64,000 nt of DNA from Bdellovibrionia bacterium. GTDB lineage: Bacteria > Bdellovibrionota > UBA1018. Position numbers and translations under genes: made by a program. This document shows, piece by piece, positions 9,853 to 58,628 of the stretch; the first letter of the stretch is position 1, and every line of letters begins with the position of its first letter. The DNA lies in contig JBBARP010000005.1 in assembly GCA_040399745.1 (NCBI GenBank), positions 118,048-182,047 of the forward strand, in the 5' to 3' direction. Under the pieces are notes generated by a model. The model did no database searches and was not told where the DNA came from. It worked only from the letters and a program-made list of their open reading frames with translations.

Positions 9853-9865
9853 GAACTGATTCCCG

Positions 9866-17833: not shown

Positions 17834-17895
17834 GGGTGCGGAAACTAGCAAAGCCCGGACGGCCATGCTACCCAGAAGAAAGGGGAAATTCCGCC

Positions 17896-21535: not shown

Positions 21536-22477
21536 ATGAATTTGCGCCTAGATTCTGAAAACGGCGACCTGGAAACCTGCCTCTGGAGCCGCGTTCGAGT
21601 GACGGGGCCGGATGCCCGCGATTACCTTCACCGAATGACGACGGCTCAGGTGAAGCACCTGAGACCGGGTCAAATCACTTCGGGCTGCTTTCTGACGGCC
21701 CAAGGCAAGGTGCGGGCGGCCTTTTCCTTGGCCTGCACGGAAGCCAACACCTTCACTTTGGAATTGGACGCCGGCCGGGACGAGGCCTGGAAAAAGGCTC
21801 TTTTGGAGGTGATCGAGCAGTTTCACTTCGCCGAAGCCTTTGAAACCGTGGACGCAAGTTCAAGCGGGCTAAGCTGGTTCTTCCTGACTGAAAGCCCAGA
21901 AGGGGCGCAGGCAAGCCGCTTTGAGTCCTTCGGAAACCTCGAGATTTATCACCACGACTCTGGAACCTGGGGACGGCCTTGGATCAGCGTTTGGGGCCCT
22001 CGCGCAGAACGCGACGCTTGGGCCAAGACCCTGGACACGGAGTTTCGTTCAGCGAAATTTTCAGAACTGCAGGCGGGGCGCATTCAAGCCCTGGCCCCTT
22101 GGGCCGACCATGAAGTGCTCGCAGACGCCAACCCCCTGGAGATTGGCCTTCGTGCGGCCATTGCCGATAACAAGGGCTGCTACCCCGGCCAGGAAGTGAT
22201 CGAGAAGATTGTGGCCCTGGGCTCGCCCGCCCGCCGCCTGGTGCTCCTGCAAGGAGCGCCCGCCGCCTCAGCCCCGGCACCCGCGCCTGGAGCCCCGGTG
22301 CAAGATTCCGCCTCTGGCACGGAGCTGGGCCAAATCACCAGCGTCGCCCCGCTCGGCGGATCAGGCGCGGGCTGGGTCGCGCTCGCGGTGCTGCGAAAAA
22401 CTCACGCGCGCCCCGGGCAAGCGGTCCACGTCGCTGGCAGCGAGGTCGCGGTCCAAGCGGTGGCGGCGTATGAATAG
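21536..22477 (+). CDS. ygfZ: YgfZ-type folate-binding Fe-S cluster repair/tRNA-modification protein (GcvT-like fold)
   Basis: Signature KGCYPGQEVIEKI near the C-terminus and an aminomethyltransferase-like N-domain. Confidence 0.7.
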   Translation: MNLRLDSENGDLETCLWSRVRVTGPDARDYLHRMTTAQVKHLRPGQITSGCFLTAQGKVRAAFSLACTEANTFTLELDAGRDEAWKKALLEVIEQFHFAEAFETVDASSSGLSWFFLTESPEGAQASRFESFGNLEIYHHDSGTWGRPWISVWGPRAERDAWAKTLDTEFRSAKFSELQAGRIQALAPWADHEVLADANPLEIGLRAAIADNKGCYPGQEVIEKIVALGSPARRLVLLQGAPAASAPAPAPGAPVQDSASGTELGQITSVAPLGGSGAGWVALAVLRKTHARPGQAVHVAGSEVAVQAVAAYE

Positions 22478-25400
22478 GCGCGCGACCGCGCGTCACTGCG
22501 CGCAAGCGTGCGCGCTCGCGCTGGCGGTGGCGGCGGGCGCCAGTGCGCCGACCCTGGCCCGGGCCCACGGCGATGCCGCGCGCGGGGCAAGCGCCTGGAG
22601 CGAATCATCCAGCAGCGCTTCTCACTCGGACTTGGACTACCGCACTCGCCCGTGGGCCGCTCCGGCGGCGCAGAATGCGGGCGGCGCCGGCGCCATCGCG
22701 CTGGGCCCGGGCGACTCGCTCTCGCTTTCGCCGTTCTGGGAGTGGCGCACGCTGGTCAGCGATCACTTCCGAATGACGTTTCCGCAGGAACTCGAAGCCA
22801 CGGCCAGGAAGGCGGTGGATTACCTCGAGGAAGCACACCGCCTTTTGGCGCCCGCTCTTCAGTGGGAGCCGCGCTTTCGCGTGCAGGTGCTTCTAGTCGA
22901 CAACACGGATTCCGCCAATGGCATGGCCATGGCGGTTCAGCGGTTCGGGATGATTCTTTACGCCACCCCGCCCGAATCCTACTTCTCGACCTCCTACGCC
23001 GACGACTGGCTCAGGCTTCTTTGCTTTCACGAATACACGCACATTTTGAATCTGGACCCCACGCGCGGCCCCATCTATCAGGCTTGGCGGCTTTTGAACG
23101 GCGATACGTTTCTTCCTAATTCGCTCTGGGCGCCTTGGATGTTGGAAGGACTCGCCACTTTTTCGGAAACTCGCCTCACTTCTGCAGGCCGCGGCCGAAG
23201 CCCCCTTTGGCGCGCTCAAATCCGCGCAGCCGCTTTGGAAAACAAGCTCGGTCAGGATGACCACGTTTCGCTCGATCGACTGACCGGGGACGTTCCATTT
23301 TTTCCCGGGGGCGAAATCCCTTATCTTTACGGCTACGAGATGATGAACGAGCTTTCGCTTTCAGCTCGTCCCGGGGAAACCGGCATTTCTGCACTAGGTC
23401 GAGTGTCCATTCAGTCAGCCGAGCGCGTCCCGTATTTCATCAACGGAAATGCAGAAAATACGTTGGGCCGCTCCTGGACCACGGCCTGGAGTGATTGGCT
23501 GAAACGCACAAAGAGCCGCACCGAGGCTGAAGCTTCCCTACTAAAAACGGCGCCTCTCACCCGGCCCCGCGAGATCACGAAGCAAGGTTACAACGTTTCA
23601 GGACTCGCGGTTTCACCCGACGGAAAAAGCCTGCTCGTTGGTCGTAGCAGCTTGCACGAAAGAAGCGGCCTTTGGCTGATCGACCTGGAATCCGGCCGCG
23701 AGCGGCGCTTGGCAGAAAAAATCGGAGGCGCATCCCTCGCGTTTGCCGATCAAGGCCGCTTGGCACTTCACAGTAGTTTGCGCCGCCGCGGCTCAAAAGA
23801 TCTCTTCAACGAGTTTAGCGACCTCCAAGCCATCGACATCAGTACTGGACGTTCGACTTGGCTCACCGAAGGACTACGCGCCAAAGATCCCAGTCTTTCT
23901 CCCGATGGGCGCTTCGTGGTTTTCACCCTGGCCGGTGAAGAGCGCGTGAGCCTAGCCGTGGCCGAGCTTTCTCGGGACTCCGCTGGGACTCCGCGCCTTG
24001 GAAACGTGAGGCGCCTTTGGGCGCCTGAGCGCTGGGGACGCGCCTCCCAGCCTGTTTTCGATCCCACCGGTAAGCGCATTGTGTTTAGCGCTCAGGTTCC
24101 GGGCCAGCTTCAGGAAAATCTGATGGAGCTGGATTGGCATCCCGCTCTAGCAGTGTCGGAAGAGGGCGATCTACCCGCACGCACGCTTCTCAGCGACGGG
24201 TTCTTTCACCGCTATCCCACCTTCGGAAAAGACGGCGCGCTTTACTTCATCTCGGACCGAACGGGTGTGCTGAATCTGTGGCGGCTAGGCGCAGGCGATC
24301 CAAAGCCTACGCTTCAAACGAACATTCTAACGGCGCTCCAGTTTCCGGCTTTTTCTCCCGATGGCCGCCTCTTCGCATCTCACTTGGGTGCAGAAGGCTG
24401 GAATATCGCGGAAGTTCCGCTTTCGCGCATGCGCCTGGATTCCGAGCGCCTCACACTGCCCAAGCTTGAAGTGCCGCGCGAAGGAAGCAGCGAGGACAGC
24501 GTTCGAACCACTGCGGCTGCGGCCGCAACTTCTTCCAACGCACTCACCGTTCAGGATTATTCGGCGTGGCCGAGCCTCCTGCCGCGCCAGTGGGGTCCTT
24601 ACCTCACTCTTGCTGGCACAGGCCTTCAGAGCGTGGGCGCCTTTGTCTATGGGTACGACGCCGTCGATCGGCATCGGTATTTTTTTCTGGGCGATTGGAA
24701 CCGCGAGACGTCGACTGCTGAAGGTTTGGCCATATACCAAAACCGCTCTTTCGCCACGACCCTGGGTGTTCAAGCCCAGAGAAGCAGTTCGCTGGTTCTA
24801 GACTCCTCGGGCACTTGGGCCGAACGAACGGATGAACTGGATGTTTCAGCGTCGCTCCCCATTCAGTGGACCTTCAGCACTCTCACTCCTTCTCTGGAAT
24901 GGAATCGCGAACAAAACAGTTGGACGCTACTCGAAGGGGTCGATCCTGTGGGGTTCTTCTCCAACTTGCCAGACGATTCCTTCACAGCGCGCGTTCGTTT
25001 CGCGGACGGCCGAAGCTCGCGCTTGGCTATCACTACCGAAGAGGGTTTTTCGAGCTCCTTAGGCGTTCGCGCCTACGCAACCCGTGGCGGCTGGAAAGCT
25101 CAGGCAGGCCATCGGCATCGGTTTCACTTAGGTGGACACGCCGTGCTCATTCCCAGCGTTCAAGGAGTGGTCACAGATGGCGGTCGCACTGCTCTGAGCT
25201 CTGCGCGCGCGCGTATTCGCGGGCGAAACGGAACGCTGACTGATAGTTTGAGTGGTGACGCTCTCGATACGCTCATTGTGCGCGGTTACTCAGGCCAGTC
25301 TTTTTGGGCCGATTCTTTAGGCCTTGCGGCTCTCGATCTGACCTTACCCTTGGCCTATGTGTTCCGGGGCTGGAGCACAAACCCAGTCTTCTTCGATCAA

Positions 25401-25628
25401 TGGGTGGGCGGTCTGTTTGTTGAAGCGGCTCAAGCCAAGCAAGTTGCGACTCTTTCGGAAACTTATTCGTCGGTCGCACTGGCTTCTTTAGGCGCATCGA
25501 TCGAAGCGCGCACGACCTGGGGACATCACATTCCCGTACTGACCTCTTTGAACTGGAACTGGGGAACGAACGCGGCCCGAGGCGGTCAGCAGGAAGTGTT
25601 CCTGCTTCTCCGCCTCGGCGCGATTTAA
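22471..25628 (+). CDS. Large (~1050 aa) secreted multidomain protein: N-terminal HExxH region plus TolB/WD40-like beta-propeller plus a C-terminal beta-rich domain
   Basis: Signal peptide MNRRATARHCAQACALALAVAAGASA, CFHEYTHILNL (HExxH), and repeated SPDGK/SPDGR/FSPDGR propeller blades. The track ORF start at 22209 lies inside ygfZ, and the ATG at 22471 overlaps the ygfZ stop. Confidence 0.6.
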
Positions 25629-25638
25629 AACCCTTCAA

Positions 25639-28600
25639 TCAAGCCCTTCCGGACACTGACGCTTTTTTACTTCCGCGCTTTTTTTCGAGCCAAAGCTCGA
25701 AGTCGTCCAAGATGGCGATAGCAGCCGGGAACACAAACGCCGTGAGCAGGCTGCCAATGGCCAGACCCCAACCCAGCGCCAAAGCGATCGGAACAACAAA
25801 CGGATCCTTGCCGCCGATGCCGTAAGCCGTGGGCAAAAGGCCTGCAACCGTCGTGGCCGTCGTCAGGAAGATGGGACGGAAGCGAATCCCAGCCGCATCG
25901 ATGATGCTCTGAGTGCGCTCCGCGCCTTCCTTACGCCGTTGGTTCACGAAGTCGATCAGAACAATCGCGTTGTTCACGATCACGCCCGCGAGCGCGATGA
26001 TTCCCAGCATCGAGAAGAACCCAAGAGGCTTTCCGTGCAGGAAGAACGTCAAGATCACGGAAATGACCCCAAGCGGAATCGTGATCATGACCAGAAGCGG
26101 CTGCAGAAGCTTTCCAAAGGTCATGACCAGAACCAGGAAAATCCCCATGAATGCGACGATGAAAGCCCTTCCCAAGGAAGCAAAACTTTCGTTCGTGTCT
26201 TCGTCTTCGCCCCCGAAAGCCACCGTCACGCCCGGAAACTTTTGATTCATCTCGGGCAGCATTTTCTTGAGCTTGCCGTTCACTTCCAAAGCACTGGCCA
26301 CTTCCGGATTCACATCGGCTGTGACTTTGATCTGCCTTTGATTGGCTTCGTGCTGGAAAACAGCAAGTCCACGAGTGGACTCGGTTCGGCTGATGCGCGA
26401 GAGCGGCACTAGGTTTCCTCGAGCATTGGGAATTAGAATTTGCCCCAAGCTGGAAACATCTTTTCTAGCGCTTTCGTCTAATGAAACTCGAACATCCACT
26501 TCTTCCTCGAGGCCCTGGATCGAAGTAGCCACCACTCCGTCAAAGGCAGCTCGCACCGTTTGACCGACTTGCGCCACGTTCAGTCCTGCTGCGGCTGCTT
26601 CAGCAGCATCCACGCGAAGAGTCACTTCTTGCTTACCTAGCAAGTAGGAATCCTGAATGTCACTGACCCCGGGAATGGGCGCCAAGATCTTTTTCAGTTC
26701 CGCCACGACCGGCATGATCTTCTCGTAATTGCTGGCCCTGACGCTCAAGCTCACTGGTTTTCCAACCGGAGGACCGGAGTTCACTCGGTCAAAGGTCACG
26801 CGCTCTATGCCCGGAGGCGTTCCCACCTCTTTCCGAAGCGCCTCAATGATTTCCTGAGCCGTGCGTTTCCGATCCCCCTCGGGAGTCAGATAAACCGCAA
26901 CCTGAGCGTACTCGCTCCCGCGCTTCGTTCCCGGATCATTCGGGTCCTGCTGCTGAACGCCGATCGAAGTGACAAAATTGTCCAATTCGTTGGTGGGAAG
27001 GTTCGCAATGATCTTTTCAATGGGTCGCGAAAGCGCTTCGGTTTGATGAAGCGAGGCGCCTGAAGGAGCGTCCATCCGAACAAAGAACGCTTCGATTCCG
27101 TCTGACGGGAATAGAACAAAGCGCATGCCTTTTGCGGCAAGACCTAAGGAGCCAATGAAAAGGATCAATACGCCGGCTGCTAAGCGATAGCGATTCACCA
27201 AAGCTTTGGCCAATGTTCTCTTGTAAGCCGGAGTGACCGAGTGGTCCCACCAGTAAGTAATCTGACCGACCATTCGCCGCCAGCCTGAAGCTTCCTTGTG
27301 GTAGCGCTTTTCAGCGTTCACCCGAATGTAAGAAGCAATGTGACCTGGAAGGATAAAGTAGGCTTCAAACAAGCTGATCAAAAGCGCCAGAATGACGCCG
27401 GCCGGAATTTCACGAACGAATTTCCCGAAAATCCCGCTCATGAAAAGCATCGGCGCAAAGGCCAAAACGGTCGTCAAAACGGATGCGGTCACTGCAGGCC
27501 AGATTTCTTGAGTCCCCTTAATGGCGGCCTCTTCTGGGGACATGCCCTCTTCCATCAATCGTACACAGTTATCCGTGACCACGATTGCGTCGTCGACCAA
27601 CATCCCGGACACGATGATGAAGCCGATCAAGGAGACCAGGTTCAGCGAATAATCCAAGTTATAGAAAACGGCCATCGTCCCCAAAAACGCAAACGGGATC
27701 CCCAGCGACACCAGCAGCGCCACGCGGATTTCAAGGATCGCTGCCAGCATCAAGAGAACGAGCACCAAACCTAAGTACAGGTTCCCTGACAAAACCCCGA
27801 TGCGCCGAGTGATCAGCTTGGAGAAGTCATTGACGAAAGAAATGCGAAGGCGAGGATCCAAAGTCGGCTGAATCTCTGCCATCCGTTCCTTCAGCTTTTT
27901 CACCAAAGTAATGGCGTCGCCTTTTTCCTTTTTCAGCACCGTCAGGGTCACAGACGGCGCCATCTTCACACTCGAAAGAACCTTCGGCTTTTCCAGCGCC
28001 ACGCGCAGCTTGGCCACATCCTTCACGCGGATAGCTTGCCCCAGGTCATTGGCGCGAATGACGGTCTCGCCCACGTCGATGACGGAATGAAAATCCCCAA
28101 CTGTGCGAACGATTCGCTCGGGGTCGCTCACTGAAAGGCTTCTCGGCTCGATCGATCCGGCCGGGACCGAGACGTTCTGCACCTGAAGGGCGCGAATCAT
28201 TTCATCCAAGGAAATTCGGTATTGAGCCAGTTTGCGTGGATCGGCTTCAACGCGGATCTCTTCGTCTTGAAGACCGGCTGCCGCCACTTTGGAAACCCCC
28301 GAGATGGACTCAATCTCGTTCTCCAATGCCTTGGCCGCACGCCGAAGCTCAAGCTCGGGCATATCGCCCGACACCGCGACTGCGATGATGGGGGTTTGCT
28401 TCGTCTCAAGTGAGGCGACTTTCGGGTCTTCTGAACCCGTCGGCACTTTGAACAAATCGACGACGTCTTGAACGTCGGTCTTGCCGTCGTCGGCAGTCGT
28501 TTGATCCGGATCCAGCTGAATCAGGATCTCACTGTAACTATCGGTCGAGAACGAGAAGATTTTCTTCACGCCGTCGACTTCTTTCAAATCCTGCTCGAGC

Positions 28601-28800
28601 GGATTGGTGACGAGCTTTTCCACTTCCGCAGGCGAAGCGCCCGGGAAAATGGTGCTCACCGCAATGGTATCAAAGCTGACGTTCGGGAAGGTCTCGCGCC
28701 GAATCAAGAAGGTCGCTCCCAAACCCACCACCAGAATGATGACGCTGAGCAAGTCCCCGAAAAGGCGCTTACGTGCGAAAAATGCGATTAATGAATTCAT
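25639..28800 (-). CDS. RND-family (AcrB/HAE1-like) inner membrane efflux transporter
   Basis: 1053 aa with 12 TM segments and two large periplasmic loops. The N-terminus is conserved (MNSLIAFFARKRLFGDLLSVIILVVG). Confidence 0.85.
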   Translation of the reverse strand: MNSLIAFFARKRLFGDLLSVIILVVGLGATFLIRRETFPNVSFDTIAVSTIFPGASPAEVEKLVTNPLEQDLKEVDGVKKIFSFSTDSYSEILIQLDPDQTTADDGKTDVQDVVDLFKVPTGSEDPKVASLETKQTPIIAVAVSGDMPELELRRAAKALENEIESISGVSKVAAAGLQDEEIRVEADPRKLAQYRISLDEMIRALQVQNVSVPAGSIEPRSLSVSDPERIVRTVGDFHSVIDVGETVIRANDLGQAIRVKDVAKLRVALEKPKVLSSVKMAPSVTLTVLKKEKGDAITLVKKLKERMAEIQPTLDPRLRISFVNDFSKLITRRIGVLSGNLYLGLVLVLLMLAAILEIRVALLVSLGIPFAFLGTMAVFYNLDYSLNLVSLIGFIIVSGMLVDDAIVVTDNCVRLMEEGMSPEEAAIKGTQEIWPAVTASVLTTVLAFAPMLFMSGIFGKFVREIPAGVILALLISLFEAYFILPGHIASYIRVNAEKRYHKEASGWRRMVGQITYWWDHSVTPAYKRTLAKALVNRYRLAAGVLILFIGSLGLAAKGMRFVLFPSDGIEAFFVRMDAPSGASLHQTEALSRPIEKIIANLPTNELDNFVTSIGVQQQDPNDPGTKRGSEYAQVAVYLTPEGDRKRTAQEIIEALRKEVGTPPGIERVTFDRVNSGPPVGKPVSLSVRASNYEKIMPVVAELKKILAPIPGVSDIQDSYLLGKQEVTLRVDAAEAAAAGLNVAQVGQTVRAAFDGVVATSIQGLEEEVDVRVSLDESARKDVSSLGQILIPNARGNLVPLSRISRTESTRGLAVFQHEANQRQIKVTADVNPEVASALEVNGKLKKMLPEMNQKFPGVTVAFGGEDEDTNESFASLGRAFIVAFMGIFLVLVMTFGKLLQPLLVMITIPLGVISVILTFFLHGKPLGFFSMLGIIALAGVIVNNAIVLIDFVNQRRKEGAERTQSIIDAAGIRFRPIFLTTATTVAGLLPTAYGIGGKDPFVVPIALALGWGLAIGSLLTAFVFPAAIAILDDFELWLEKKRGSKKASVSGRA

Positions 28801-30317
28801 GGCAGGAGTCCCTCACGCACGCGACCGGCTTGGCGCAGTACCTGCCAAGCGACTTGTCGCAGTTCTACTTCGGTTCCATTTAAAACCAGCTCAGCCTGGG
28901 TGGCGTCGTCGCCGGCTTGAATCACCTGGAAAGTGCCCGATCGGCCCAAGCGGAAGCGCTCCTCTTCCAGTCGTGCCCGGTCGCGGAACGAGTTGGCCGT
29001 GCGATTCGTGGATTCTTGAGCGCGCTTCAAGCGATGAAGATCCAAGCAGACGGCCGTCCATCGCGAAATGTTCTGGTCCTGCGCGATCGATTGGCCCGCA
29101 TCGGCCCGAATCCAGGTTGCCGTGCTCGACAAAACGTCCGCTTTTTCAGCCGTAAACCCGATGGGCATGCTCAAGGTGACGCCCACGGCGTAACCTTTCC
29201 CAGCCCGACCCGCGAAATCCGAGAAACTGGCGTTGGCCGTACTGGCCACCCCGTTGGTGAAGACCTGGCCCTGAAGCTCCAGATTGGGCCGAGCCAAGGC
29301 CTCAGCGCGTTTCTGAGAATCGAGAGCGGCTTCCGCTTGCGAGCGAGCGCGCTGCACATCCAAGCCTTCAGGAGCAGGATTCAGCTTCTCTTCGCTGCCA
29401 CAGAGTTTCAGGGCTTCCACTTGCGGTTCATCGAGCGCCATCGGAATTCGAGTGGCAGGAATCCGAGTCCAATCGGGATTCAGCTTCAGCGAGAGAACCA
29501 AGTCGCGCCAAGTGTCCTGAAGTCGCAGCTCGGCGGCCTCAAGCTGGTTTTTCGCTGCCGTCACGGCGCCTTCGACTTGCAGAACATCGGGTCTCTCGGC
29601 GGTTCCACGCTGAGCTTGAAGTCCCACAAGCGATTGAAAACGAACCTTTCGGTCAAAGCCTTCTTTGGCGGCTCGAGACTGGGCCTGCGAAAGCCAAGCG
29701 CCGTAATACAGCCGCACTAAACCAAGCACCCACTCTTCCATTCCGGCTTGCGCCTGAAGGCCTTCGGCTTCCGAGAATTTCTTCGCCGAACGCTGCTGAG
29801 CGCGAGTGGCTTGCCCCAACGAGTCGGCCCAGAGTTTCTGAGTGACGCTCAAAGTGCTTCGCGTATCGAAGTAGTCAAACTGACCAAAGGTAGGAAATGC
29901 GATCAAGTTGTTCGAGTGGGATACTTCCGCTTGGACCGAAGTTCCGGTCTGAAAGGCCGTAGCCAAACCCACCGCCATACTGGTGCCTTCGGTGTGATTG
30001 GGACTAAAGCTATTGCTGGCTTCGCGGCGATCGTCCAAGCGGCTGAATTTTGCGTAAGGGCGCCAAGCCAGCGCAGACGAGGCTTGAAGCTCAGCCACCG
30101 GCGCCGTGAGAAATCCAGCCTTCGCCGAACGGAAGCTATCGGAGCTTTCAGCAGCGCGTTTCAGCACAAAAGGCATCTCAAGCCTTTGATTCGGTAAGGA
30201 TTTCAAAAGCTGCACAGCATCTTCCGGAAAGCCATTGAGCTCCGGAGCTGCCCAAGCAACCGAAGACGAAGCAACAAGGACTCCTGCCCATGCCAACAGA
30301 GAAAAAAGGTGCGCCAT
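28797..30317 (-). CDS. Outer membrane factor (TolC/OprM family) of the RND efflux system
   Basis: Signal peptide and duplicated OEP repeats. It overlaps the RND gene start by 4 nt. Confidence 0.7.
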   Translation of the reverse strand: MAHLFSLLAWAGVLVASSSVAWAAPELNGFPEDAVQLLKSLPNQRLEMPFVLKRAAESSDSFRSAKAGFLTAPVAELQASSALAWRPYAKFSRLDDRREASNSFSPNHTEGTSMAVGLATAFQTGTSVQAEVSHSNNLIAFPTFGQFDYFDTRSTLSVTQKLWADSLGQATRAQQRSAKKFSEAEGLQAQAGMEEWVLGLVRLYYGAWLSQAQSRAAKEGFDRKVRFQSLVGLQAQRGTAERPDVLQVEGAVTAAKNQLEAAELRLQDTWRDLVLSLKLNPDWTRIPATRIPMALDEPQVEALKLCGSEEKLNPAPEGLDVQRARSQAEAALDSQKRAEALARPNLELQGQVFTNGVASTANASFSDFAGRAGKGYAVGVTLSMPIGFTAEKADVLSSTATWIRADAGQSIAQDQNISRWTAVCLDLHRLKRAQESTNRTANSFRDRARLEEERFRLGRSGTFQVIQAGDDATQAELVLNGTEVELRQVAWQVLRQAGRVREGLLP

Positions 30318-30412: not shown

Positions 30413-31036
30413 TTAAACGGTCAAAAGAGAAATCCAGCGCTGAAGCTTGTCATCTCCAAAGCCTTGTTCACCCGAGATCACTTCATCCGCAAAGTCCTGA
30501 GAAGGCTCGACGAACTGATCGTGCATGGGTTTCACTTGGCGCTCAAACTGCTTCCGAACGCCATCAGGCGATCGTCCGCGCTCACGGGTATCTCGCCTCA
30601 GCCTTCGGTCGTACCGAATGGCTTCAGAAGCCGAGATGAAAATGCGGTGATCGGCTAACGCGCGGATTTCGGGGTCATTCAAAAGAAGAGTGCCATCCAA
30701 AAGAATGACGGGCTTGGGCTCGATGCGAGTGGTCTCGCTCTTTCGAGTGTGGGTGGCAAAATCGTACATCGGTGCTTCGATGGCTTTTCCCTGCTGAAGC
30801 TCCCGCGCGTGCCGCGCCATCAGGCTCAGCTCCAAAGCCGAAGGATGATCAAAGTTCACGTTCTCGCCGTCCCCGCGAAACACCGAGGATTGGTCGATGT
30901 AGTAGCGGTCCTGACTCAGCACCACACTACGATGATCGCCCAGCAGCTCGTGGAGCCGGTTTGCGAATGTGGTCTTTCCGGAAGCACTGCCACCGGCAAT
31001 TGCCACCACTCGAATCCGGGACTTCTCGAACTGCAT
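30413..31036 (-). CDS. udk: Uridine kinase
   Basis: P-loop VVAIAGGSASGKTT. It is ~207 aa and matches the Udk family throughout. Confidence 0.8.
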   Translation of the reverse strand: MQFEKSRIRVVAIAGGSASGKTTFANRLHELLGDHRSVVLSQDRYYIDQSSVFRGDGENVNFDHPSALELSLMARHARELQQGKAIEAPMYDFATHTRKSETTRIEPKPVILLDGTLLLNDPEIRALADHRIFISASEAIRYDRRLRRDTRERGRSPDGVRKQFERQVKPMHDQFVEPSQDFADEVISGEQGFGDDKLQRWISLLTV

Positions 31037-31085
31037 GACAACCTTCTTCCAACGAAATCAGGGCGGCCGCAAGCCCCCCTGAAAC

Positions 31086-31724
31086 TTACTGAATGGTATC
31101 GAACAAACGGTCGCCAGCGTCGCCCAGGCCCGGCAGCAGGTATCCCCGCTCGTTCAAGCCCTTTTCGATCGAAAGCGTATAGATCTCGACGTCCGGATGT
31201 AGGTGAGCCATCCGTTCCAGTCCCTGAGGCGATGCCAAAAGGTTCAGGCAGCGAATCGAGCCCACTTCCAGCTCTTTCAAACGTTCAATGGCGGCACAAA
31301 GAGTATCCCCGGTGGCCAAAAGCGGATCGAGAAGCAAGACGCGCTTTCCTTTCACGTCCCGAGGAAGGCGCAAGTAGTACTCCACCGTGCTGTGAATGAA
31401 CTTGTCGCGGTAAATTCCAATGTGCCCCACCGTTGCAAACGGAAGGATGGGCAACATTCCCCCGAGCATTCCCATTCCAGCCCGCATGATGGCGACCAAG
31501 GCAACCCCTTCGTCGACCACCCGGGTCTCCGCTTTTTCCAAGGGAGTTTCGACGGTCGTTGCGCGAGTTTTCAGATCGCGCGTGGCCTCGTAAGCCAAGA
31601 GCGCACTGAGCTCTTCCACGATCTGACGAAACGTGTGGGGCGTGGTGTTCTTATCCCGAAGCACATGAAGCTTATGCTGGGCCACCGGATGTTCGATCAG
31701 TTTCAATTTGGGATTCAAAGTCAT
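31086..31724 (-). CDS. upp: Uracil phosphoribosyltransferase
   Basis: Start at MTLNPKLKLIEHPVAQHKL. PRPP-binding motif VLLLDPLLATGDT. The C-terminus YLLPGLGDAGDRLF is typical of Upp. Confidence 0.85.
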   Translation of the reverse strand: MTLNPKLKLIEHPVAQHKLHVLRDKNTTPHTFRQIVEELSALLAYEATRDLKTRATTVETPLEKAETRVVDEGVALVAIMRAGMGMLGGMLPILPFATVGHIGIYRDKFIHSTVEYYLRLPRDVKGKRVLLLDPLLATGDTLCAAIERLKELEVGSIRCLNLLASPQGLERMAHLHPDVEIYTLSIEKGLNERGYLLPGLGDAGDRLFDTIQ

Positions 31725-31758
31725 GAGAGACGTGTTCCTTTCGGATCCAGCTTTCAAA

Positions 31759-32997
31759 TCAGAAAACGGTTCCATCGCTGGCCAGCTTCAGTGGAGGATT
31801 TCCACCTGGGCGAAGCTCGCTCGCAATTTCGCGTCCTGCCCACCAAGTTCCGCCTTCTAGAACGCAAGCCAAGGGGAACTGAGCCGAACTCACTCCGAGC
31901 TTTTTCCGCACGGCCAAGGCAATGCGATCCAGCCAGGTCACCGTCAACGCGCGCCACTCAACGATGAGTTCTGATCCCGGCATGTGCTCGAGAGCGGCTA
32001 GCCCTGGGTCTTCCAAAGTGATCAGGCCTGCATCCACAATCAGTCCGCCGTTTCGGTACTCGGCAAGTCCCGTCAGTTGGCCAAGATCGGTTACCGTAAA
32101 GCCAAAACGTTCGGCCGGATCGAGAAGCGAGTACGTCATCCACTGGGACAACTTATGGAAGCAAACCCAGCCTTCGGGCTGACTCACATTCCCCAATGCC
32201 GGGTGTTCCCAAACGTCGCCCAGCGGTGCGCCCTTCCAATCCAGGCGTCCTGGCCAGATCGAGCCAAACCCGCGAAGCACAGCGTCCAAGATGGCACGAG
32301 CCGGGAGCCATTCCGAGCCACCCATGTCGGCTTTCAAGTAATCGAGGATCCCTGAAGGCCGCCCTGAAGAACCGAATCGAAGGGTGTCGCCCTCGATCGC
32401 TTTCCCGAGGTTTTGCAAAAGCTCCAAGCGACCGTCCAAACCCGCGAGCGGATTTTTAGGGCCCACCTGAAAGCCGTTGGCCAAACGTTCGCGAGTCAGC
32501 GCGCGAAGACCCGCTGCATCCACCTGATAGGGCCGCTTCGGATCGGAACTAAACGCACCCGAGAGAAATAGATCCAAGCTCGCTACGGCCAACCCTTCCG
32601 ATCGGGCGTAAGTCCTTCCGTCGCGTCGATCGTCGTACTTCCACTGACCGCCAGAACCGGCGTCCAGGAGAACCGAAACGACGACCAAATCGAGTCGCGC
32701 ACGAGCCAGGTCTTCTTTCGACTGAGCTGCAAACGCTTTGTCCACGTCCGACAAGCGATTGATTCCGCCCACTAAGAAGTGGCCCCAACGTGCATGGGGC
32801 GGAATTTTTAAATCCGGATAACGCCTTCGAGTGCTGGCCACGACCCGGTCGGCCACCACTTCCAACTCTTCGGGATGCACTCGAAAATAGCCTTCCCCCC
32901 GCTCTGCGCGTTCGGCCAATTTCAAGCACCTCTCGCGAATGGATTCAGGAGAAAGGAGTTCGTCTAAAACGGCATCTTGCCCTAGTGCTGGAATCAC
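31759..32997 (-). CDS. DUF1688-family protein (URC4-like, uracil catabolism-associated)
   Basis: ~412 aa, with no recognisable catalytic motif. The assignment rests on size and composition plus tight coupling to the URC1-like gene and upp, which is the typical bacterial URC arrangement. It overlaps the next gene by 4 nt. Confidence 0.5.
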   Translation of the reverse strand: MIPALGQDAVLDELLSPESIRERCLKLAERAERGEGYFRVHPEELEVVADRVVASTRRRYPDLKIPPHARWGHFLVGGINRLSDVDKAFAAQSKEDLARARLDLVVVSVLLDAGSGGQWKYDDRRDGRTYARSEGLAVASLDLFLSGAFSSDPKRPYQVDAAGLRALTRERLANGFQVGPKNPLAGLDGRLELLQNLGKAIEGDTLRFGSSGRPSGILDYLKADMGGSEWLPARAILDAVLRGFGSIWPGRLDWKGAPLGDVWEHPALGNVSQPEGWVCFHKLSQWMTYSLLDPAERFGFTVTDLGQLTGLAEYRNGGLIVDAGLITLEDPGLAALEHMPGSELIVEWRALTVTWLDRIALAVRKKLGVSSAQFPLACVLEGGTWWAGREIASELRPGGNPPLKLASDGTVF

Positions 32998-34250
32998 TCG
33001 GTCAGCCCCCGTCCCTTCACTTTTTTCAGTTCTTCGCCCTGAGGCACGTGGCCTGGAGTGAAATAGCCAGCCGCTTTCTTGGCCTCCATTTCGACTTGAG
33101 CGTCTTTCGGAATCAACTCATCCGGAATCGGCACGCGCTCGCGCACTTCAATGCCGCTTTGAACGATGGCGTTGAACTTCATGTCGCTCATCGAGATCAG
33201 GCGATCAATCTTGGTGATGCCCAGCCAATGCAGAACATCGGGCATGAGCTGTTGAAAGCGCATGTCTTGGACGCCCGCCACGCACTCGGTGCGGTGGAAG
33301 TAAGTCGCGGCGCTATCGCCGCCTTCTTGGCGCTTGCGTGCGTTGTAAACCAGGAACTTGGTGACTTCGCCCAATGCCCGGCCTTCTTTGCGGTAGTACA
33401 CAATGGCGCCGGCGCCGCCTTTTTGAGCAGTCCGAATCGCTTCTTCGATTCCGTGCACCAAGTAGGGACGGCAAGTGCAGATGTCCGAACCAAAGACGTC
33501 CGAGCCATTGCACTCGTCGTGTACGCGAACGGTGAGCTCTTTGGAGGTATCCGGAATCGAGGTAATATCGCCAAACAGGTAGACCGAAGTGCTTCCGATG
33601 GGCGGCAGAAAAATTTTCAGATCCGGCCGAGTGACCAACTCGGGGTGCATTCCGCCCGTTTGCTGAAACAGAGTCCGACGAAGCGTTCCTTCGTCAGTTC
33701 CGAAACGAGCGGCAATGGCAGGCAAGTACCAAACCGGCTCAATGGCGGCTTTAGTCACCACTACGTCCAGGCTAGGAAGAATGACTTTGCCGTCCACTTT
33801 CAGACGCCCTTTTGAAACAGCGTCGTCGAGCTCGGCCATGCGGATGTGGGCTTTAGTCACCGCAATCGACGGGCGAATGTCGTACCCTTTTTTCAGGTAG
33901 TCCCCGAAAACCTCGGCCACGACCGCACCCCAGGGATCGACCGACACAATTTTTTCTGGGTTCGTCCACGAAGGAAAGGGACCGATCGAAACGGCAGGCG
34001 AAGTATTGGTGAGATCGGGACGATGATCTTCCGGCAAAGCTCCTGCAGCCATCGCCAAAGCCCGGTAAACGCTGTAACTCCCGCTGTGCGAGCCAATGGC
34101 ATTGCGATGATGAGGATCCGTGTGCGTGGCCACCACTGGGCCTCGAGTGAGCGGATCGGCCGCTCCCCATTGCACGGGAGTCACGGTTTTTCGGCCTTGG
34201 CCGGGATGCGAGGTCAAAATGACATGGGACAGTTTCTGCTTCTGGGGCAC
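32994..34250 (-). CDS. GTP cyclohydrolase II-like protein (URC1-like, RibA homolog with an N-terminal extension)
   Basis: VHDECNGSDVFGSDICTCRPYL corresponds to the RibA zinc-binding C-x-C...C motif. It is 418 aa versus ~200 aa for RibA. Confidence 0.6.
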   Translation of the reverse strand: MPQKQKLSHVILTSHPGQGRKTVTPVQWGAADPLTRGPVVATHTDPHHRNAIGSHSGSYSVYRALAMAAGALPEDHRPDLTNTSPAVSIGPFPSWTNPEKIVSVDPWGAVVAEVFGDYLKKGYDIRPSIAVTKAHIRMAELDDAVSKGRLKVDGKVILPSLDVVVTKAAIEPVWYLPAIAARFGTDEGTLRRTLFQQTGGMHPELVTRPDLKIFLPPIGSTSVYLFGDITSIPDTSKELTVRVHDECNGSDVFGSDICTCRPYLVHGIEEAIRTAQKGGAGAIVYYRKEGRALGEVTKFLVYNARKRQEGGDSAATYFHRTECVAGVQDMRFQQLMPDVLHWLGITKIDRLISMSDMKFNAIVQSGIEVRERVPIPDELIPKDAQVEMEAKKAAGYFTPGHVPQGEELKKVKGRGLTE

Positions 34251-34276
34251 GAATCAGTCTCCTTCTCTACTTTGGA

Positions 34277-35755
34277 TCAATTCATCCAGTTCTTGTCGGA
34301 AGCGGCGCTCCACTTCACGGTAATTTTCTTTCGGTCACTCCAGAACTCCACGCCGGAAGCTCCTGTGATGTCGCCCGAACCAAACTTCGAATCGTAAAAA
34401 CCACCAAAACTAAACGGCTCGCGCGGCACCGGTACACCGATATTCACGCCGATCATCCCAGCGCGCGCTTCTTGAGCCACGCGTTCGGCTACGGCCCCGT
34501 TTGAAGTGAACACCGAAGCTGCGTTGCCAAAAGGCAAACTGGCTTCGATCTCAAGCGCTTCCGAAAGCGTATTCACGCGAACCACCGAAATCAGGGGTCC
34601 AAAAAGCTCGTCGCATGCAGCCGAAGTGCCGGGCTTCACGTGATCCAAAATCGTTGGCCCAAGCCAGTTTCCGCCCGCATAGTCGGCGGGGGCCTGAGCT
34701 TGCCTTCCATCCAAGCGAAGCGTGGCGCCTTCTTGCAAGGCTTTCTCGATACCCTTCACCAAGCGCTCGCGCGACTCACGCGAGATCAAAGCGCCCATGT
34801 CGGGGCCCAGTCGAATCGCTTTTGCTTTTTCGACCACTTGATCCAAGATTTTTTCGCAGTCGCCCACCCCAATCAGAAGGCTTGCAGCCATGCAGCGCTG
34901 ACCAGCGCAGCCCGTGAAGGAATCTGCAATTCCGCGACTCGCCATTTCCACATCGGCATCGGGCATCAAAATGATGGGGTTCTTCGCACCACCCAGAGCC
35001 AGCACGCGCTTGCCGGATCGCGAACCGCGCTCGTAGACCGAACGCGCTACCGGGGTTGAACCCACAAAACCCACCGCACGAATTTCGGGGTGATCCAAAA
35101 CTGCCTCGACCGTTTCGCGACCGCCATGGACGACGGTCAGAACGCCGTCTGGAAGTCCCGCCTCTTTCCAAGCTTGAGCAATCAGGGCCGGCGTCATCGG
35201 CGTTTTATCCGAAGGTTTCCAGACAAACGCATTTCCCACGCCGATCGCAATCGGCATCATCCACATCGGAACCATGGCCGGAAAGTTAAACGGCGTAATC
35301 CCTGCCACCACACCCAGAGCTTCGCGACGGTATTCGCAAAACACTCCGCGAGACACTTCCATACGGCCACCGGCATCGAGGTTCTGAAGGCTGAGCGCGA
35401 ACTCGAGCACTTCCACGCCCTTCAACAGGCCTGCTTTGGCTTCAGCCAAAGTTTTACCGCTCTCTAAGCTGATGGTCTGGCTGATTAAGCCCAGGTCCCG
35501 CAAAAGCACTTCGCGGAAACGAAAAAGGACCCCGCAGCGCTCTTTCAGCGGCGTTCTACCCCACAAGAGTGCGGCTTGAGCGGCGGCGCGGACCCCGCGA
35601 TCGACGTCCGCCGTGGTGCTGGCGCGCAAAACTCCCACCTTCGTCCCTGAGTAGGGGCTGATGACTGCGAGCTCAGGACCTGATCCTGCCTCAAAACGAC
35701 CGGCGATCCAGTTCTCAACTTTGCGGACATCTTGAGGAATTTGAACGGAGTTCAT
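34277..35755 (-). CDS. mmsA: CoA-acylating methylmalonate/malonate-semialdehyde dehydrogenase
   Basis: Aldehyde dehydrogenase catalytic Cys (CAGQRCMA). MMSDH-type C-terminus PVPREPFSFGGFYDSKFGSGDITGASGVEFWSDRKKITVKW. Confidence 0.75.
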   Translation of the reverse strand: MNSVQIPQDVRKVENWIAGRFEAGSGPELAVISPYSGTKVGVLRASTTADVDRGVRAAAQAALLWGRTPLKERCGVLFRFREVLLRDLGLISQTISLESGKTLAEAKAGLLKGVEVLEFALSLQNLDAGGRMEVSRGVFCEYRREALGVVAGITPFNFPAMVPMWMMPIAIGVGNAFVWKPSDKTPMTPALIAQAWKEAGLPDGVLTVVHGGRETVEAVLDHPEIRAVGFVGSTPVARSVYERGSRSGKRVLALGGAKNPIILMPDADVEMASRGIADSFTGCAGQRCMAASLLIGVGDCEKILDQVVEKAKAIRLGPDMGALISRESRERLVKGIEKALQEGATLRLDGRQAQAPADYAGGNWLGPTILDHVKPGTSAACDELFGPLISVVRVNTLSEALEIEASLPFGNAASVFTSNGAVAERVAQEARAGMIGVNIGVPVPREPFSFGGFYDSKFGSGDITGASGVEFWSDRKKITVKWSAASDKNWMN

Positions 35756-35840: not shown

Positions 35841-37130
35841 TCAGCTCAGGCGATCCAGCCCAAAGCTGGTATGAAGCGCCTGCACCGCATCTTTCACGCG
35901 TTCGCCATCGACCAAGCAGGAGATTTTAATCTCGCTCGTGGTGATCAGCTCGATGTTGATGCCTTTCTCGGCCAGAGTCTGGAACATCTGGGTGGCTACG
36001 CCTGGGTGATTTTGCATGCCCACACCCACGACGCTGACCTTTGCCAAACCCGACCGCTCCAGAATGCGCATCTCGGGGAATGCCTGCGTGCGAAGTTGCT
36101 CGAGCACTTGACGCGCTTTTGCCGCATCCGTTTGGCCCACCGTGAAGCTCACGGTCAATCGGCCTTCTTGGGAGACATCCTGGACAATGACATCCACCAC
36201 GATGGCTGCCTGCGAAAGCGCACCAAACACTTGGGCCGCCACGCGGGGCTGATCCTTCACGTCTTGCAGAGTCAGTTTCACTTGTGCGGAATCAGCAGCA
36301 ACGCCCGAGACCACAACATTTTCCATCGACTCACCCAACATGTCCTGACTTACCACCCAGGTACCCTCCACGGGATCAAAACTCGAACGCACATGAAGTG
36401 GAATGCGGTACTTCGCCGCAAGTTCCACGCTTCGAATCTGGAGTACTTTTGCACCCAGCGAAGCCAGCTCCATCATCTCTTCATACGAGATTCGCGAAAT
36501 CTTCCGCGCTTTCGGACAAAGCCTCGGATCGGTCGTGTAAACGCCGTCCACGTCCGTATAAATTTCGCAGTCGACTTGCTCGTGCTTTCCGCGAAGCGCG
36601 GCAGCGACAGCCACAGCACTGGTATCCGAACCCCCGCGCCCGAGAGTGGTGATGTTCCCCTCTTCGTCGACGCCTTGAAAGCCCGCAATCACGGGAATCA
36701 CGCCGCGATCAATTTCGCGGTCCAAAACCGCGGTGTCGATCGAGCGAATTCGCGCCTTCGAGTAAACGCTATCGGTGAGGATTCCAATCTGATGTCCGAG
36801 CAACCCCCGCGCAGCGCGGCCTTCGGGAAGTTCCAAGCCGCGGCGCTTGGCTTCCGCATTGATGGCCAGAGTGACCAGGCCTACTGAAATTTGCTCGCCG
36901 CTTGCGATCAGAAGATCGTACTCCGAGCTTTGAGGGATGGGGTCGACCTCGGTTGCGAGCTTCACCAAGCGATTGGTTTCGCCACTCATGGCAGACACCA
37001 CCAAAACCACGCGATCGCCCTTGGCCTGGCTGTCGAGCGCCCAGCGCGCCACCGACTGAATGCGCTCGATGGTGCCCACCGAGGTGCCGCCGAACTTCTG
37101 AACTAAAATGCGTTTTTGAGACAAACCCAC
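35841..37130 (-). CDS. lysC: Aspartate kinase with C-terminal tandem ACT domains
   Basis: ILVQKFGGTSVG N-terminus from a likely GTG start, then the AK fold and two C-terminal ACT domains. The track ORF extends further upstream, so the true start is uncertain. Confidence 0.75.
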   Translation of the reverse strand: MGLSQKRILVQKFGGTSVGTIERIQSVARWALDSQAKGDRVVLVVSAMSGETNRLVKLATEVDPIPQSSEYDLLIASGEQISVGLVTLAINAEAKRRGLELPEGRAARGLLGHQIGILTDSVYSKARIRSIDTAVLDREIDRGVIPVIAGFQGVDEEGNITTLGRGGSDTSAVAVAAALRGKHEQVDCEIYTDVDGVYTTDPRLCPKARKISRISYEEMMELASLGAKVLQIRSVELAAKYRIPLHVRSSFDPVEGTWVVSQDMLGESMENVVVSGVAADSAQVKLTLQDVKDQPRVAAQVFGALSQAAIVVDVIVQDVSQEGRLTVSFTVGQTDAAKARQVLEQLRTQAFPEMRILERSGLAKVSVVGVGMQNHPGVATQMFQTLAEKGINIELITTSEIKISCLVDGERVKDAVQALHTSFGLDRLS

Positions 37131-37349
37131 GATAGGGCTTCTAATCCAGACCGCGCCGTTAGGGAATGGAAGCTTCGGGGAATTTGAATGAACTGTAAAA
37201 AGTTTTGACAGGTGTTCCGGGAACCAAGCAGAGACCCCTGCTCGTCCCAAAAAGCTCCCCCAGAATGGCCGAAAACCTCCATCCAGGGCACTTTCCAAGC
37301 TTTTTCCCAGGCAGGCGCCCGGCAAGGGTCTTGCAACTTCCCGGGTTGG

Positions 37350-38888
37350 ATGACGAGGCCTTCCCTGCACGCCTACATTTTCTGGTTCGTGGCTACGCTC
37401 GCCTTACCCGTGTCTGGGATGGCGGACGCAGAACAGGACCCGGCTATGCAGGCGTATCACCGCCTGAGCTCAGCTAGGCCCAATCCCTATCACCTTTCGA
37501 TGAATTACTACTGGGATGAAGAAACCCAAAAAGCCAATCCTGAGGCCTTCCTCAAAGACCTTCAGACCGCCCGCACCCTGCCTAAGAACCTTCGGCTGGA
37601 GATTTTAGAAAGACTCGGGTTCAAACTCGGTGACAACTGGTCGAGCAAGAATGATGGAAAGCCCGAGGCCAATTTTGACCGCGCCTTCTCCTTCCTCGCC
37701 TCAGGAAAACCGTCAGAAGATAGCAACTGCGTGACTGCCCATGCCGTGCTGAGCTTTCAGGCGGCGAAGCATCTGGGGTTTGAGCCCGTGGCCCTCGGAG
37801 GCCACTGGATCACCCAAGGTGGAAAGGGGGGCAATCACGCCTATCTGCTCATTCACGACCCGGAAACGAAAGAATTCACGGTCATCAATTACGAGACTCA
37901 AAAAACGCTCTCCGTCCCGAAGCAACTTCCTCAAAATGTGCGTATCTCGGAAGCTGCACGCTTGGCGCAGGTTTCGCTAGGAGGCACACTCAATGTCCAG
38001 CTGGGCTCTCAAGGCGCTCACCTCACCAAGATGGGCGATATTCTGTCCCGAAAAGTGATTGGAGAATCGGCGCCTTCTGAAATCCGAAAAGAGACCCTGC
38101 CCGACGGAAGTTCCTTTGTCACCTATCGCCAAGGCGACTGGAGCATCGCACAGATTCAAACACCCGATGAAGGCACGATGGATTGGGTCGGAACTCAACA
38201 AAAATTAGGTAAGTTAGGCATTGCCGCCGGTATCACCCACCAAACCCTCGACAAAGACCACGAGCACAGTTCAGCCGTAGTTCAAATATGCCTTCAGTCG
38301 AGCCGAACTTCGAACCCCCTCTTTCAAGTGGAAGGGTTTGCCAAGGCGATTTTAGAAATCATCCAAACTAATTCCCCCGACAGCAGCGCCGTGAGCCAGC
38401 CCTACACAGCGGTAGGCGGGAAAGTTCAGCACAAACCCACGGGAGTGCAGCTTGCTGGCCTAGTGCAAGCGTTGCCGACATTCGAAGATAATACTAAAAT
38501 TACGACCCCGTTCCGGCTGGCCGCGAGCGCCCCGGTGGCCCGCGGTGTGCGCGCGGGCGTCGTTCATGGAAGCGCGGGTCTGACGACAACTGAAGGGCCC
38601 AGCACCAGCTACGTTGCCAGTGCGCGCGCGGAGAAGAGCCGCGGTCGCACCGGCGTAACGGCGGAGGCGCAGTTTTTGGACCGCGGCCAGGGCACCCGGG
38701 CCGGCGGCGCGGGCTTCGCGCTGGGGCTGAACTACCAACTGCGCGAAGGCGAGAGCGCGGGCATCCGAGTGCGAAGCGCCCAGGGCGCGTGGGGCGATCC
38801 GCTGGACTTGGAGGCGTACCTACGACCGGAGTACCGCGTGCCCGGCTCGGGGCCCCGGCTGGAGCTGCGCTGGGGGCGGAAGTGGTGA
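37350..38888 (+). CDS. Secreted protein with a possible transglutaminase-like Cys-His-Asp core and a Gly/Ala-rich beta-rich C-terminus
   Basis: Signal peptide MTRPSLHAYIFWFVATLALPVSGMA. A Cys...His...Asp spacing at DSNCVTAHAV...GNHAYLLIHDP resembles the transglutaminase-like fold, but this is tentative. Confidence 0.4.
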   Translation: MTRPSLHAYIFWFVATLALPVSGMADAEQDPAMQAYHRLSSARPNPYHLSMNYYWDEETQKANPEAFLKDLQTARTLPKNLRLEILERLGFKLGDNWSSKNDGKPEANFDRAFSFLASGKPSEDSNCVTAHAVLSFQAAKHLGFEPVALGGHWITQGGKGGNHAYLLIHDPETKEFTVINYETQKTLSVPKQLPQNVRISEAARLAQVSLGGTLNVQLGSQGAHLTKMGDILSRKVIGESAPSEIRKETLPDGSSFVTYRQGDWSIAQIQTPDEGTMDWVGTQQKLGKLGIAAGITHQTLDKDHEHSSAVVQICLQSSRTSNPLFQVEGFAKAILEIIQTNSPDSSAVSQPYTAVGGKVQHKPTGVQLAGLVQALPTFEDNTKITTPFRLAASAPVARGVRAGVVHGSAGLTTTEGPSTSYVASARAEKSRGRTGVTAEAQFLDRGQGTRAGGAGFALGLNYQLREGESAGIRVRSAQGAWGDPLDLEAYLRPEYRVPGSGPRLELRWGRKW

Positions 38889-45591: not shown

Positions 45592-45603
45592 GAGGGCTTT
45601 CCC

Positions 45604-58570: not shown

Positions 58571-58628
58571 TCTTGCTCTGACTTCGTAACGCCTGAGTGC
58601 CAGCCCCCTGACACTTCAATCCGCAGTT

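Follow-up and report, generated by a model that had tools for sequence, protein, structure and literature searches.

Five neighbouring genes on the minus strand of a 64,000-nucleotide (64-kb) stretch of a Bdellovibrionia bacterium genome (GenBank assembly accession number GCA_040399745.1, contig JBBARP010000005.1; coordinates 118,048 to 182,047; here called the window) raise the question of how uridine and uracil could be broken down in this organism, and of what reaction is performed by the DUF1688 protein that the middle gene encodes. An earlier note, made from the DNA sequence, had read the genes as a cluster for pyrimidine catabolism of the URC type, and all five open reading frames (ORFs) were found in the region it gave (window coordinates 30413–35755):

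34277–35755, minus strand: mmsA-like gene, 492 amino acids (aa), coenzyme A (CoA)-acylating malonate/methylmalonate-semialdehyde dehydrogenase (PF00171, TIGR01722)
32994–34250, minus strand: URC1/UrcA-type gene, 418 aa, predicted uridine triphosphate (UTP) cyclohydrolase (PF12471 and PF00925, NF005536)
31759–32997, minus strand: URC4/DUF1688 gene, 412 aa, predicted Qng1-like helix-hairpin-helix (HhH) N-glycosylase (PF07958)
31086–31724, minus strand: upp, uracil phosphoribosyltransferase, 212 aa (longest ORF to 31775, 229 aa; PF14681, TIGR01091)
30413–31036, minus strand: udk, uridine kinase, 207 aa (PF00485, NF004018)

It is highly probable that the five genes form an operon serving the URC-type catabolism of uridine and uracil, with the steps as proposed below. 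For the DUF1688 family, the interpretation somewhat favoured here is that of a divergent sister family of Qng1 that hydrolyses ribosylurea-5'-phosphate, using Glu in place of Asp and a C-terminal carboxylate of its own, with the operon of the Bdellovibrionota serving as a carbon and energy route from prey pyrimidine nucleosides and urea being excreted. The pathway, its occurrence in bacteria and the UTP cyclohydrolase are already known, and the cluster as such is no discovery; what the analysis adds is the assignment of DUF1688 as Qng1-like. Of the four known routes of pyrimidine degradation, URC is the one least understood, and this assignment of URC4, if true, would complete its enzymology.

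Gene products and gene order

The 418-aa protein was found to contain a GTP_CH_N domain (PF12471; residues 9–197, E 4e-85) followed by a GTP-cyclohydrolase-II-like zinc domain matching PF00925 (residues 226–374, E 2e-17), in keeping with the earlier description of a RibA-like protein with a CxC...C zinc motif and an N-terminal extension. The zinc cysteines C247-x10-C258-x-C260 are present and invariant across 20 homologues, and the URC1-type model NF005536 was matched with 748 bits (cut-off 403). A phmmer search aligned residues 8–416 with PDB entries 7EJ3 and 7EEV (E 2e-181, ~70% identity), and a Foldseek search retrieved, at 66% identity and a template modelling (TM) score of 0.8, PDB entries with the titles 'Structure of UTP cyclohydrolase' (release date 2021-07-28) and 'UTP cyclohydrolase'; the AlphaFold2 model used for this search was mediocre (predicted local distance difference test, pLDDT, 64.5) and served solely to fetch these titles. 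Over the full length, at 66–70% identity, the protein has the same two-domain architecture and zinc cysteines as 7EEV/7EJ3, and no sequence-level difference was detected. As the closest solved homologue is a UTP cyclohydrolase, the URC1-type protein of this locus is predicted to be one too, with UTP rather than uridine monophosphate (UMP) as its substrate. The UTP cyclohydrolase paper of Zhang et al. (ACS Catal 2021;11:8895) is cited as a reference for the URC pathway.

The mmsA-like protein matched PF00171 (E 6e-119) and passed the cut-off of the methylmalonate-semialdehyde dehydrogenase (MMSDH) model TIGR01722 by a narrow margin (454.7 bits, cut-off 448.5). Its ten best PDB matches were all acylating (methyl)malonate-semialdehyde dehydrogenases (329–369 bits), the next PDB family being betaine aldehyde dehydrogenase (211 bits), and the AGQRCMA active-site motif with its Arg-Cys pair is conserved. 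The protein was assigned to MmsA because of the TIGR01722 score and the exclusively acylating PDB matches with a QRC motif. The upp product, the equivalent of yeast URC6 and of urg2 of Schizosaccharomyces pombe, matched PF14681 (E 1.5e-67) and TIGR01091 (238.7 bits, cut-off 208), and the udk product matched PF00485 (E 4.5e-34) and NF004018 (218.9 bits, cut-off 180), with 194.6 bits on TIGR00235, under the cut-off of 220.3. With curated cut-offs passed on TIGR01722, TIGR01091 and NF004018, the assignments made earlier for these three genes stand. The 412-aa protein is a DUF1688 protein, as had also been proposed, and matches PF07958 over its full length (E 2.8e-141); its homologues number in the thousands and are named 'URC4/urg3 family protein' by NCBI.

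In yeast, URC1 and URC4 are reported to be required for the breakdown of uracil to urea and 3-hydroxypropionate, and to be conserved in bacteria. URC1 and URC6 lead to ribosylurea and a C3 acid, while the conversion of ribosylurea to urea falls to URC4. URC1 and URC4 are orthologues of S. pombe urg1 and urg3, which, together with urg2, form a uracil-induced cluster that encodes a GTP-cyclohydrolase-II-like protein (urg1), a uracil phosphoribosyltransferase (urg2) and a DUF1688 protein (urg3).

The genetic context of DUF1688 genes was examined in a scan using one genome per species, which yielded 593 DUF1688-encoding loci, and the best 80 were searched by tblastn with the five window proteins. 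Gene placement in these 80 loci, where the Cyanobacteria group includes a Sericytochromatia locus (L040), was as follows:

URC1 upstream of DUF1688, same strand: Bdellovibrionota/Oligoflexia 30/31, Myxococcota 3/3, Cyanobacteria group 21/27, Proteobacteria 18/18, Planctomycetota 1/1
upp downstream of DUF1688: Bdellovibrionota/Oligoflexia 28/31, Myxococcota 3/3, Cyanobacteria group 12/27, Proteobacteria 17/18, Planctomycetota 1/1
mmsA upstream of URC1: Bdellovibrionota/Oligoflexia 27/31, Myxococcota 3/3, Cyanobacteria group 1/27 (the Sericytochromatia locus), Proteobacteria 0/18, Planctomycetota 0/1
udk downstream of upp: Bdellovibrionota/Oligoflexia 23/31, Myxococcota 0/3, Cyanobacteria group 1/27 (the Sericytochromatia locus), Proteobacteria 0/18, Planctomycetota 0/1

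URC1 adjoins DUF1688 on the same strand in 73 of the 80 loci and upp lies downstream of DUF1688 in 61, so that URC1-DUF1688-upp is a near-universal same-strand block among the loci examined, and the conserved neighbourhood anticipated in the earlier note is borne out. The arrangement is far beyond chance: dozens of genomes share this gene order. The closest gene sets were those of a Bdellovibrionia metagenome assembly and an uncultured Bacteriovorax (mmsA 68–69% and URC1 74–75% identity), which places the window in a member of the Bdellovibrionota; in a cultured strain, Bdellovibrio bacteriovorus Bd16 (L037), all five genes occur in identical order. The placement of mmsA fits the earlier proposal that the bacterial route ends in acetyl-CoA via malonic semialdehyde. 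With mmsA and udk among its five genes, the operon represents a lineage-specific variant of a known pathway; no description of it, and no paper linking Bdellovibrio to the cluster, was found in the searchable literature.

When all ORFs at the 80 loci were clustered, no family beyond the five genes was conserved across phyla, and urea carboxylase, urease, transporters, phosphatases and regulators were not among the conserved neighbours. Several apparent neighbour families were discarded as antisense shadow ORFs in GC-rich genomes. In three loci from Microcoleus and Polaromonas (L015, L058 and L064), representing two phyla, a gene for an Amidohydro_1/Amidohydro_3 protein of ~430–445 aa with an HTHLDKGH motif lies in or beside the URC block; the motif resembles that of cytosine deaminase, and the protein may provide an entry point for cytosine into the pathway. 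Thalassomonas viridans (L083; coordinates 6102–9893) carries upp on both sides of URC1-DUF1688. A gene for a protein resembling zinc-dependent alcohol dehydrogenases and quinone reductases directly follows upp in three Methylobacterium loci (L082, L071 and L073) and is confined to that genus, where it may encode an alternative malonic-semialdehyde reductase. Different candidate malonic-semialdehyde enzymes in other lineages, such as this one, fit malonic semialdehyde as the C3 product.

Proposed pathway and the DUF1688 protein

In the proposed pathway, Udk would form UMP from uridine and ATP, and Upp would form it from uracil and 5-phosphoribosyl 1-diphosphate. UTP as the substrate of URC1 means that UMP kinase and nucleoside-diphosphate kinase are also needed, and these housekeeping enzymes, encoded elsewhere, would convert UMP to UTP. 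The URC1-type zinc enzyme would then remove pyrophosphate and hydrolytically open and cleave the uracil ring, yielding malonic semialdehyde and ribosylurea-5'-phosphate. The UTP cyclohydrolase described in 2021 is reported to hydrolyse UTP with cleavage of the uracil ring, the products being malonic semialdehyde and a ribosylurea nucleotide. DUF1688/URC4 would next cut the N-glycosidic bond of ribosylurea-5'-phosphate to release urea and ribose-5-phosphate, and MmsA would convert malonic semialdehyde, CoA and NAD+ to acetyl-CoA, CO2 and NADH. The earlier note had UMP feeding the chemistry of URC1 and URC4; the formation of UMP by Upp and Udk stands, but the 66–70% identity to 7EEV/7EJ3 points to UTP as the compound on which URC1 acts. 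Its view that the enzymology of both proteins awaited explanation no longer applies to URC1, which has relatives solved as UTP cyclohydrolases, and still applies to URC4, for which no activity has been described.

The core triad is common to the locus and the yeast URC system (Lachancea kluyveri URC1, URC4, URC6, URC8 and URC3/5; S. pombe urg1-urg2-urg3), and the overall chemistry is alike, with uracil passing via a nucleotide to urea and a C3 product. However, the yeast route ends in 3-hydroxypropionate, whereas the locus would keep the C3 unit as acetyl-CoA by means of the CoA-acylating MmsA, which stands where the earlier note placed the yeast URC8 reductase. The uridine kinase of the locus is an addition that provides an entry for the nucleoside.

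To our knowledge, DUF1688/URC4 has been without an assigned activity ever since the description of the URC pathway in 2008. Sequence searches of the PDB with the single DUF1688 sequence, with a 27-sequence profile and with P0026 gave no meaningful match. An AlphaFold2 model built on 27 sequences was of high quality (pLDDT 92.8, predicted TM score 0.91), and all 11 significant Foldseek matches to it were to Qng1 (E 7e-12 to 2e-9, target-normalised TM 0.75–0.77). As modelled, the protein appears to have the HhH-glycosylase-derived fold with the insertions specific to Qng1. The N-glycosylase Qng1 has an HhH fold, with queuosine-5'-monophosphate as its preferred substrate, and its terminal carboxylate contributes to the active site (PMC9881137).

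Qng1 sequences were recovered from the PDB alignments, homologues were collected and the two families were aligned using hhalign. The DUF1688 profile matched a 37-sequence Qng1 profile with 86.8% probability (E 4.3e-6, 288 aligned columns); a two-sequence Qng1 profile had given a mere 15.7%. Thus the link surfaced by fold comparison alone and was then confirmed by profile-profile alignment. The following residues correspond, the last pair lying outside the hhalign alignment:

Qng1 D231, catalytic carboxylate: DUF1688 E313
Qng1 Y232, stacking on the ribose: DUF1688 Y314
Qng1 K199, HhH lysine orienting the ribose: DUF1688 K282
Qng1 K233, phosphate contact: DUF1688 R315
Qng1 R80, phosphate contact: DUF1688 Q118, not conserved and non-basic
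Qng1 D69, conserved position: DUF1688 D112
Qng1 W81, conserved position: DUF1688 W119
Qng1 C-terminal Tyr, active-site terminal carboxylate: DUF1688 C-terminal Phe F412

The paired motifs are FHKLSQW in DUF1688 and FYKRAQ in Qng1, and GL[AP]EYRN in DUF1688 and FADY[KR]xPQ in Qng1. The HhH lysine is kept, and at the position of the catalytic Asp, present in 120/120 Qng1 homologues, a Glu is found in 118/120 DUF1688 homologues, so the residue differs and the carboxylate is retained. All 120 DUF1688 homologues end in SDGTVF and all 120 Qng1 homologues in Tyr, and R315 is invariant in the DUF1688 family. A tag at the C-terminus inactivates Qng1. The predicted secondary-structure register also matches that of Qng1, with a hairpin just before the Lys, a strand 13 residues past the carboxylate and a short helix 17–18 residues past it. 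K282, E313, Y314, R315 and F412 are therefore the predicted key residues of DUF1688.

The two families are nevertheless distinct. Identity between Qng1/DUF2419 (PDB 7U07 and 7UGK; PMC9881137) and the DUF1688 protein is only 15–24%, the DUF1688 protein is ~90 residues longer, and the base-recognition residues D298 and W302 of Qng1 lie in a C-terminal stretch left unaligned by hhalign. The leaving group is queuine in Qng1 and would be urea in DUF1688, and the genomic context is pyrimidine catabolism for DUF1688 but tRNA modification salvage for Qng1. Matches to PF10343 below threshold were obtained for 17 of 27 DUF1688 members (best E 2.1e-4). DUF1688 lies outside PF10343 but is a homologous family, and its reaction is very probably of the same type. 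By analogy with Qng1, for which the preferred substrate is a nucleoside 5'-monophosphate (PMC9881137), URC4 may be expected to hydrolyse ribosylurea-5'-phosphate to urea and ribose-5-phosphate. No link between DUF1688 and Qng1 was found in the searchable literature, and the Qng1 paper (PMC9881137) is silent on URC4 and DUF1688. The Qng1-like fold turns the 2008 question about URC4 into a one-enzyme experiment with a defined substrate, product and catalytic residues.

Several points weigh against this assignment or against the pathway as a whole. The window DUF1688 protein itself scored 11.7 bits on PF10343 (gathering cut-off 25, E 0.19), and the hhalign probability, at 87%, is below 95%. The Qng1 phosphate contact R80 has no basic counterpart, and the Qng1 nucleophile Asp is replaced by Glu. 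Yeast genetics ties URC4 to ribosylurea, not to ribosylurea phosphate. The products suggested for the cyclohydrolase draw in part on analogy with GTP cyclohydrolase II. Among the non-overlapping longest ORFs of at least 100 aa in the window, none was found for UMP kinase, nucleoside-diphosphate kinase, a transporter or a regulator. The 80 loci, as the best matches of a motif-seeded scan, span five phyla and are biased to close relatives of the query. A promoter scan revealed no sigma-70-like promoter and terminator-like hairpins were only weak, so the operon boundaries are not fixed. All support for the pathway in the window organism is computational.

The most serious uncertainty is the exact URC4 substrate, which could be ribosylurea-5'-phosphate, ribosylurea or a ring-opened ribotide, a choice that is beyond sequence. 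With URC1 acting as proposed, URC4 could act elsewhere, by cleaving ureidoacrylate ribotide, by cleaving unphosphorylated ribosylurea after a phosphatase has acted, or as something other than a glycosidase (an amidohydrolase or a scaffold for URC1). The missing R80 counterpart, the Glu nucleophile and the ribosylurea of the published yeast scheme would all suit such a role, as would the 1.7-fold preference, no greater, of StQng1 for nucleotide over nucleoside, and the overlapping reading frames of URC1 and URC4 are compatible with a physical complex. However, R315, which pairs with the phosphate ligand K233, is invariant, the cyclohydrolase, by analogy with GTP cyclohydrolase II, would leave a 5'-monophosphate, and the cluster lacks a conserved phosphatase gene across the 80 loci. 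Both the fold and the Lys/carboxylate pair in the alignment belong, moreover, to N-glycosylases only. A different role for URC4 is therefore regarded as unlikely, and hydrolysis of ribosylurea-5'-phosphate is retained as the preferred reaction.

Salvage, riboflavin synthesis and the naming of the URC1 family

The cluster could also be read as one for pyrimidine salvage or control of the nucleotide pool, in which upp and udk act in the recycling of bases, surplus or damaged UTP is trimmed by URC1 and URC4, and mmsA is unrelated and belongs to valine, beta-alanine or inositol catabolism. Both upp and udk are classical salvage genes, enzymes of the MMSDH family have several physiological roles, no transporter or regulator accompanies the genes, and the clusters of Cyanobacteria and Proteobacteria lack mmsA. 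Such a function is, however, very unlikely because the position of mmsA is constant across the Bdellovibrionota and Myxococcota; its position and strand are kept in the 27 of 31 and three of three loci counted above and in the one Sericytochromatia locus, with 57–69% identity and a short gap to URC1. In addition, the yeast orthologues are induced by uracil, and growth with uracil as the source of nitrogen depends on them. Catabolism by the URC route thus remains the preferred function of the locus.

A role of the 418-aa protein in riboflavin synthesis, as a genuine GTP cyclohydrolase II with coincidental neighbours, is scarcely credible, for although its close homologues bear that name in the sources and its zinc cysteines and C-terminal domain align with E. 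coli RibA, it failed all RibA and RibBA models with 42–64 bits against cut-offs of 148–764 (NF001591, 64.4 against 148; TIGR00505, 55.2 against 205.9; NF006803, 57.8 against 569), E. coli RibA covers only query residues 226–377 (E 1.7e-9), a UTP cyclohydrolase is its nearest relative among solved structures, and no riboflavin gene lies nearby in the window, the conserved partners being DUF1688 and upp. A RibA identity was thus rejected on profile scores and neighbourhood, and the URC1-type membership proposed at the outset was confirmed. In common with RibA (PDB 2BZ0), to which its similarity is remote, the URC1-type protein has the fold of the catalytic domain, a Cys-x10-Cys-x-Cys zinc site and a number of active-site motifs; it differs from RibA in its additional 200-residue N-terminal domain and in its predicted substrate and pathway.

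URC1-type homologues are 70–79% identical across phyla, and the close homologues that carry a name are called 'GTP cyclohydrolase II' everywhere except for one 'hypothetical protein'. This label is a systematic and widespread misannotation of the family, which would wrongly assign a riboflavin step to these genomes. One URC1-type protein of metagenomic origin (P0164, 725 aa) consists of a partial catalytic domain followed by a full GTP_CH_N domain and a second catalytic domain, and is either a tandem duplication read as a single gene or an assembly artefact.

Physiological role, gene boundaries and the rest of the window

The pathway most likely serves here to recover carbon and energy, as acetyl-CoA, NADH and ribose-5-phosphate, with urea discarded, because no urea-using enzyme is encoded nearby. 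The earlier note had found no urea-handling genes in the cluster, and the same holds for the 64-kb window, where domains of urease, urea carboxylase and allophanate hydrolase were not detected in the non-overlapping longest ORFs of at least 100 aa. Unlike the yeast pathway, which serves nitrogen assimilation, the locus has no nearby means of nitrogen recovery such as urea amidolyase or urease. A URC3/5 urea amidolyase and a URC8-like adjacent short-chain dehydrogenase/reductase were likewise found neither among the window ORFs nor as conserved neighbours, and may lie elsewhere in the genome; urea-assimilating enzymes and the URC8 reductase are accessory rather than core URC steps.

A compact bacterial version, in which every dedicated step between uridine or uracil and acetyl-CoA is encoded in one place, may explain how predatory bacteria such as Bdellovibrio and its relatives burn surplus prey pyrimidines. 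A carbon and energy pathway would suit predators flooded with prey nucleotides, and urea is the predicted excreted product.

The Rut pathway, and the reductive pathway when extended to acetyl-CoA, also pass through malonic semialdehyde, and in the latter the final step to acetyl-CoA is likewise taken by an acylating dehydrogenase. No domains of RutA-G, dihydropyrimidine dehydrogenase, dihydropyrimidinase or beta-ureidopropionase were found among the window ORFs. Unlike the Rut and reductive routes, the proposed route would cleave the ring at the nucleotide level, with nitrogen leaving as urea.

The four-nucleotide overlaps reported earlier between the middle three genes hold for one junction. 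By ORF coordinates, URC1 and DUF1688 overlap at 32994–32997, the sole 4-nt overlap of the locus, whereas DUF1688 and upp overlap by 17 nt if the longest upp ORF is used. The upp start is most likely the ATG at 31724, because it is preceded by an AAGGA ribosome-binding motif and because the same start, giving 212 aa, was called on an independent metagenomic contig of identical sequence (L001); a gap of 34 nt then separates DUF1688 from upp. The gaps between mmsA and URC1 and between upp and udk are 26 nt and 49 nt, respectively, and the five genes are probably co-transcribed. Rfam and tRNA scans of the whole window returned zero RNA genes, so that the cluster is without a riboswitch or any other RNA gene.

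The genes on either side have no relation to the cluster, with an aspartate kinase gene upstream and a TolC-like/RND (resistance-nodulation-division) efflux pair downstream. The longest aspartate kinase ORF (35841–37370, minus strand) includes ~85 N-terminal residues before the kinase domain and is overlapped by a 558-aa ORF on the plus strand (37212–38888) without any Pfam match; the start of the kinase probably lies further downstream than that of its longest ORF. Directly downstream of udk, on the same strand, the region 25639–30317 encodes a TolC-like OEP protein and an AcrB-type RND pump, beside which no membrane-fusion protein gene was seen. An OEP-HlyD-ABC-MacB/FtsX efflux set is located at 12623–16890 (plus strand).

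Approximately 10 kb from the URC cluster, genes for a FabI-like enoyl-acyl carrier protein reductase and then an adenosine deaminase were found at 44833–46566 (plus strand); the latter is a second nucleoside-catabolic gene of the window and is unlinked to the operon. A single ORF at 17719–19062 (plus strand) encodes VKOR (vitamin K epoxide reductase) fused to a DsbA/thioredoxin domain, a disulfide-bond-forming system. Four consecutive large ORFs of 392, 765, 536 and 337 aa at 57392–63573 (plus strand) had no Pfam match at E<1e-5, and an 1139-aa protein encoded at 22209–25628 (plus strand) has PD40 (WD40-like beta-propeller repeats) as its sole Pfam match.

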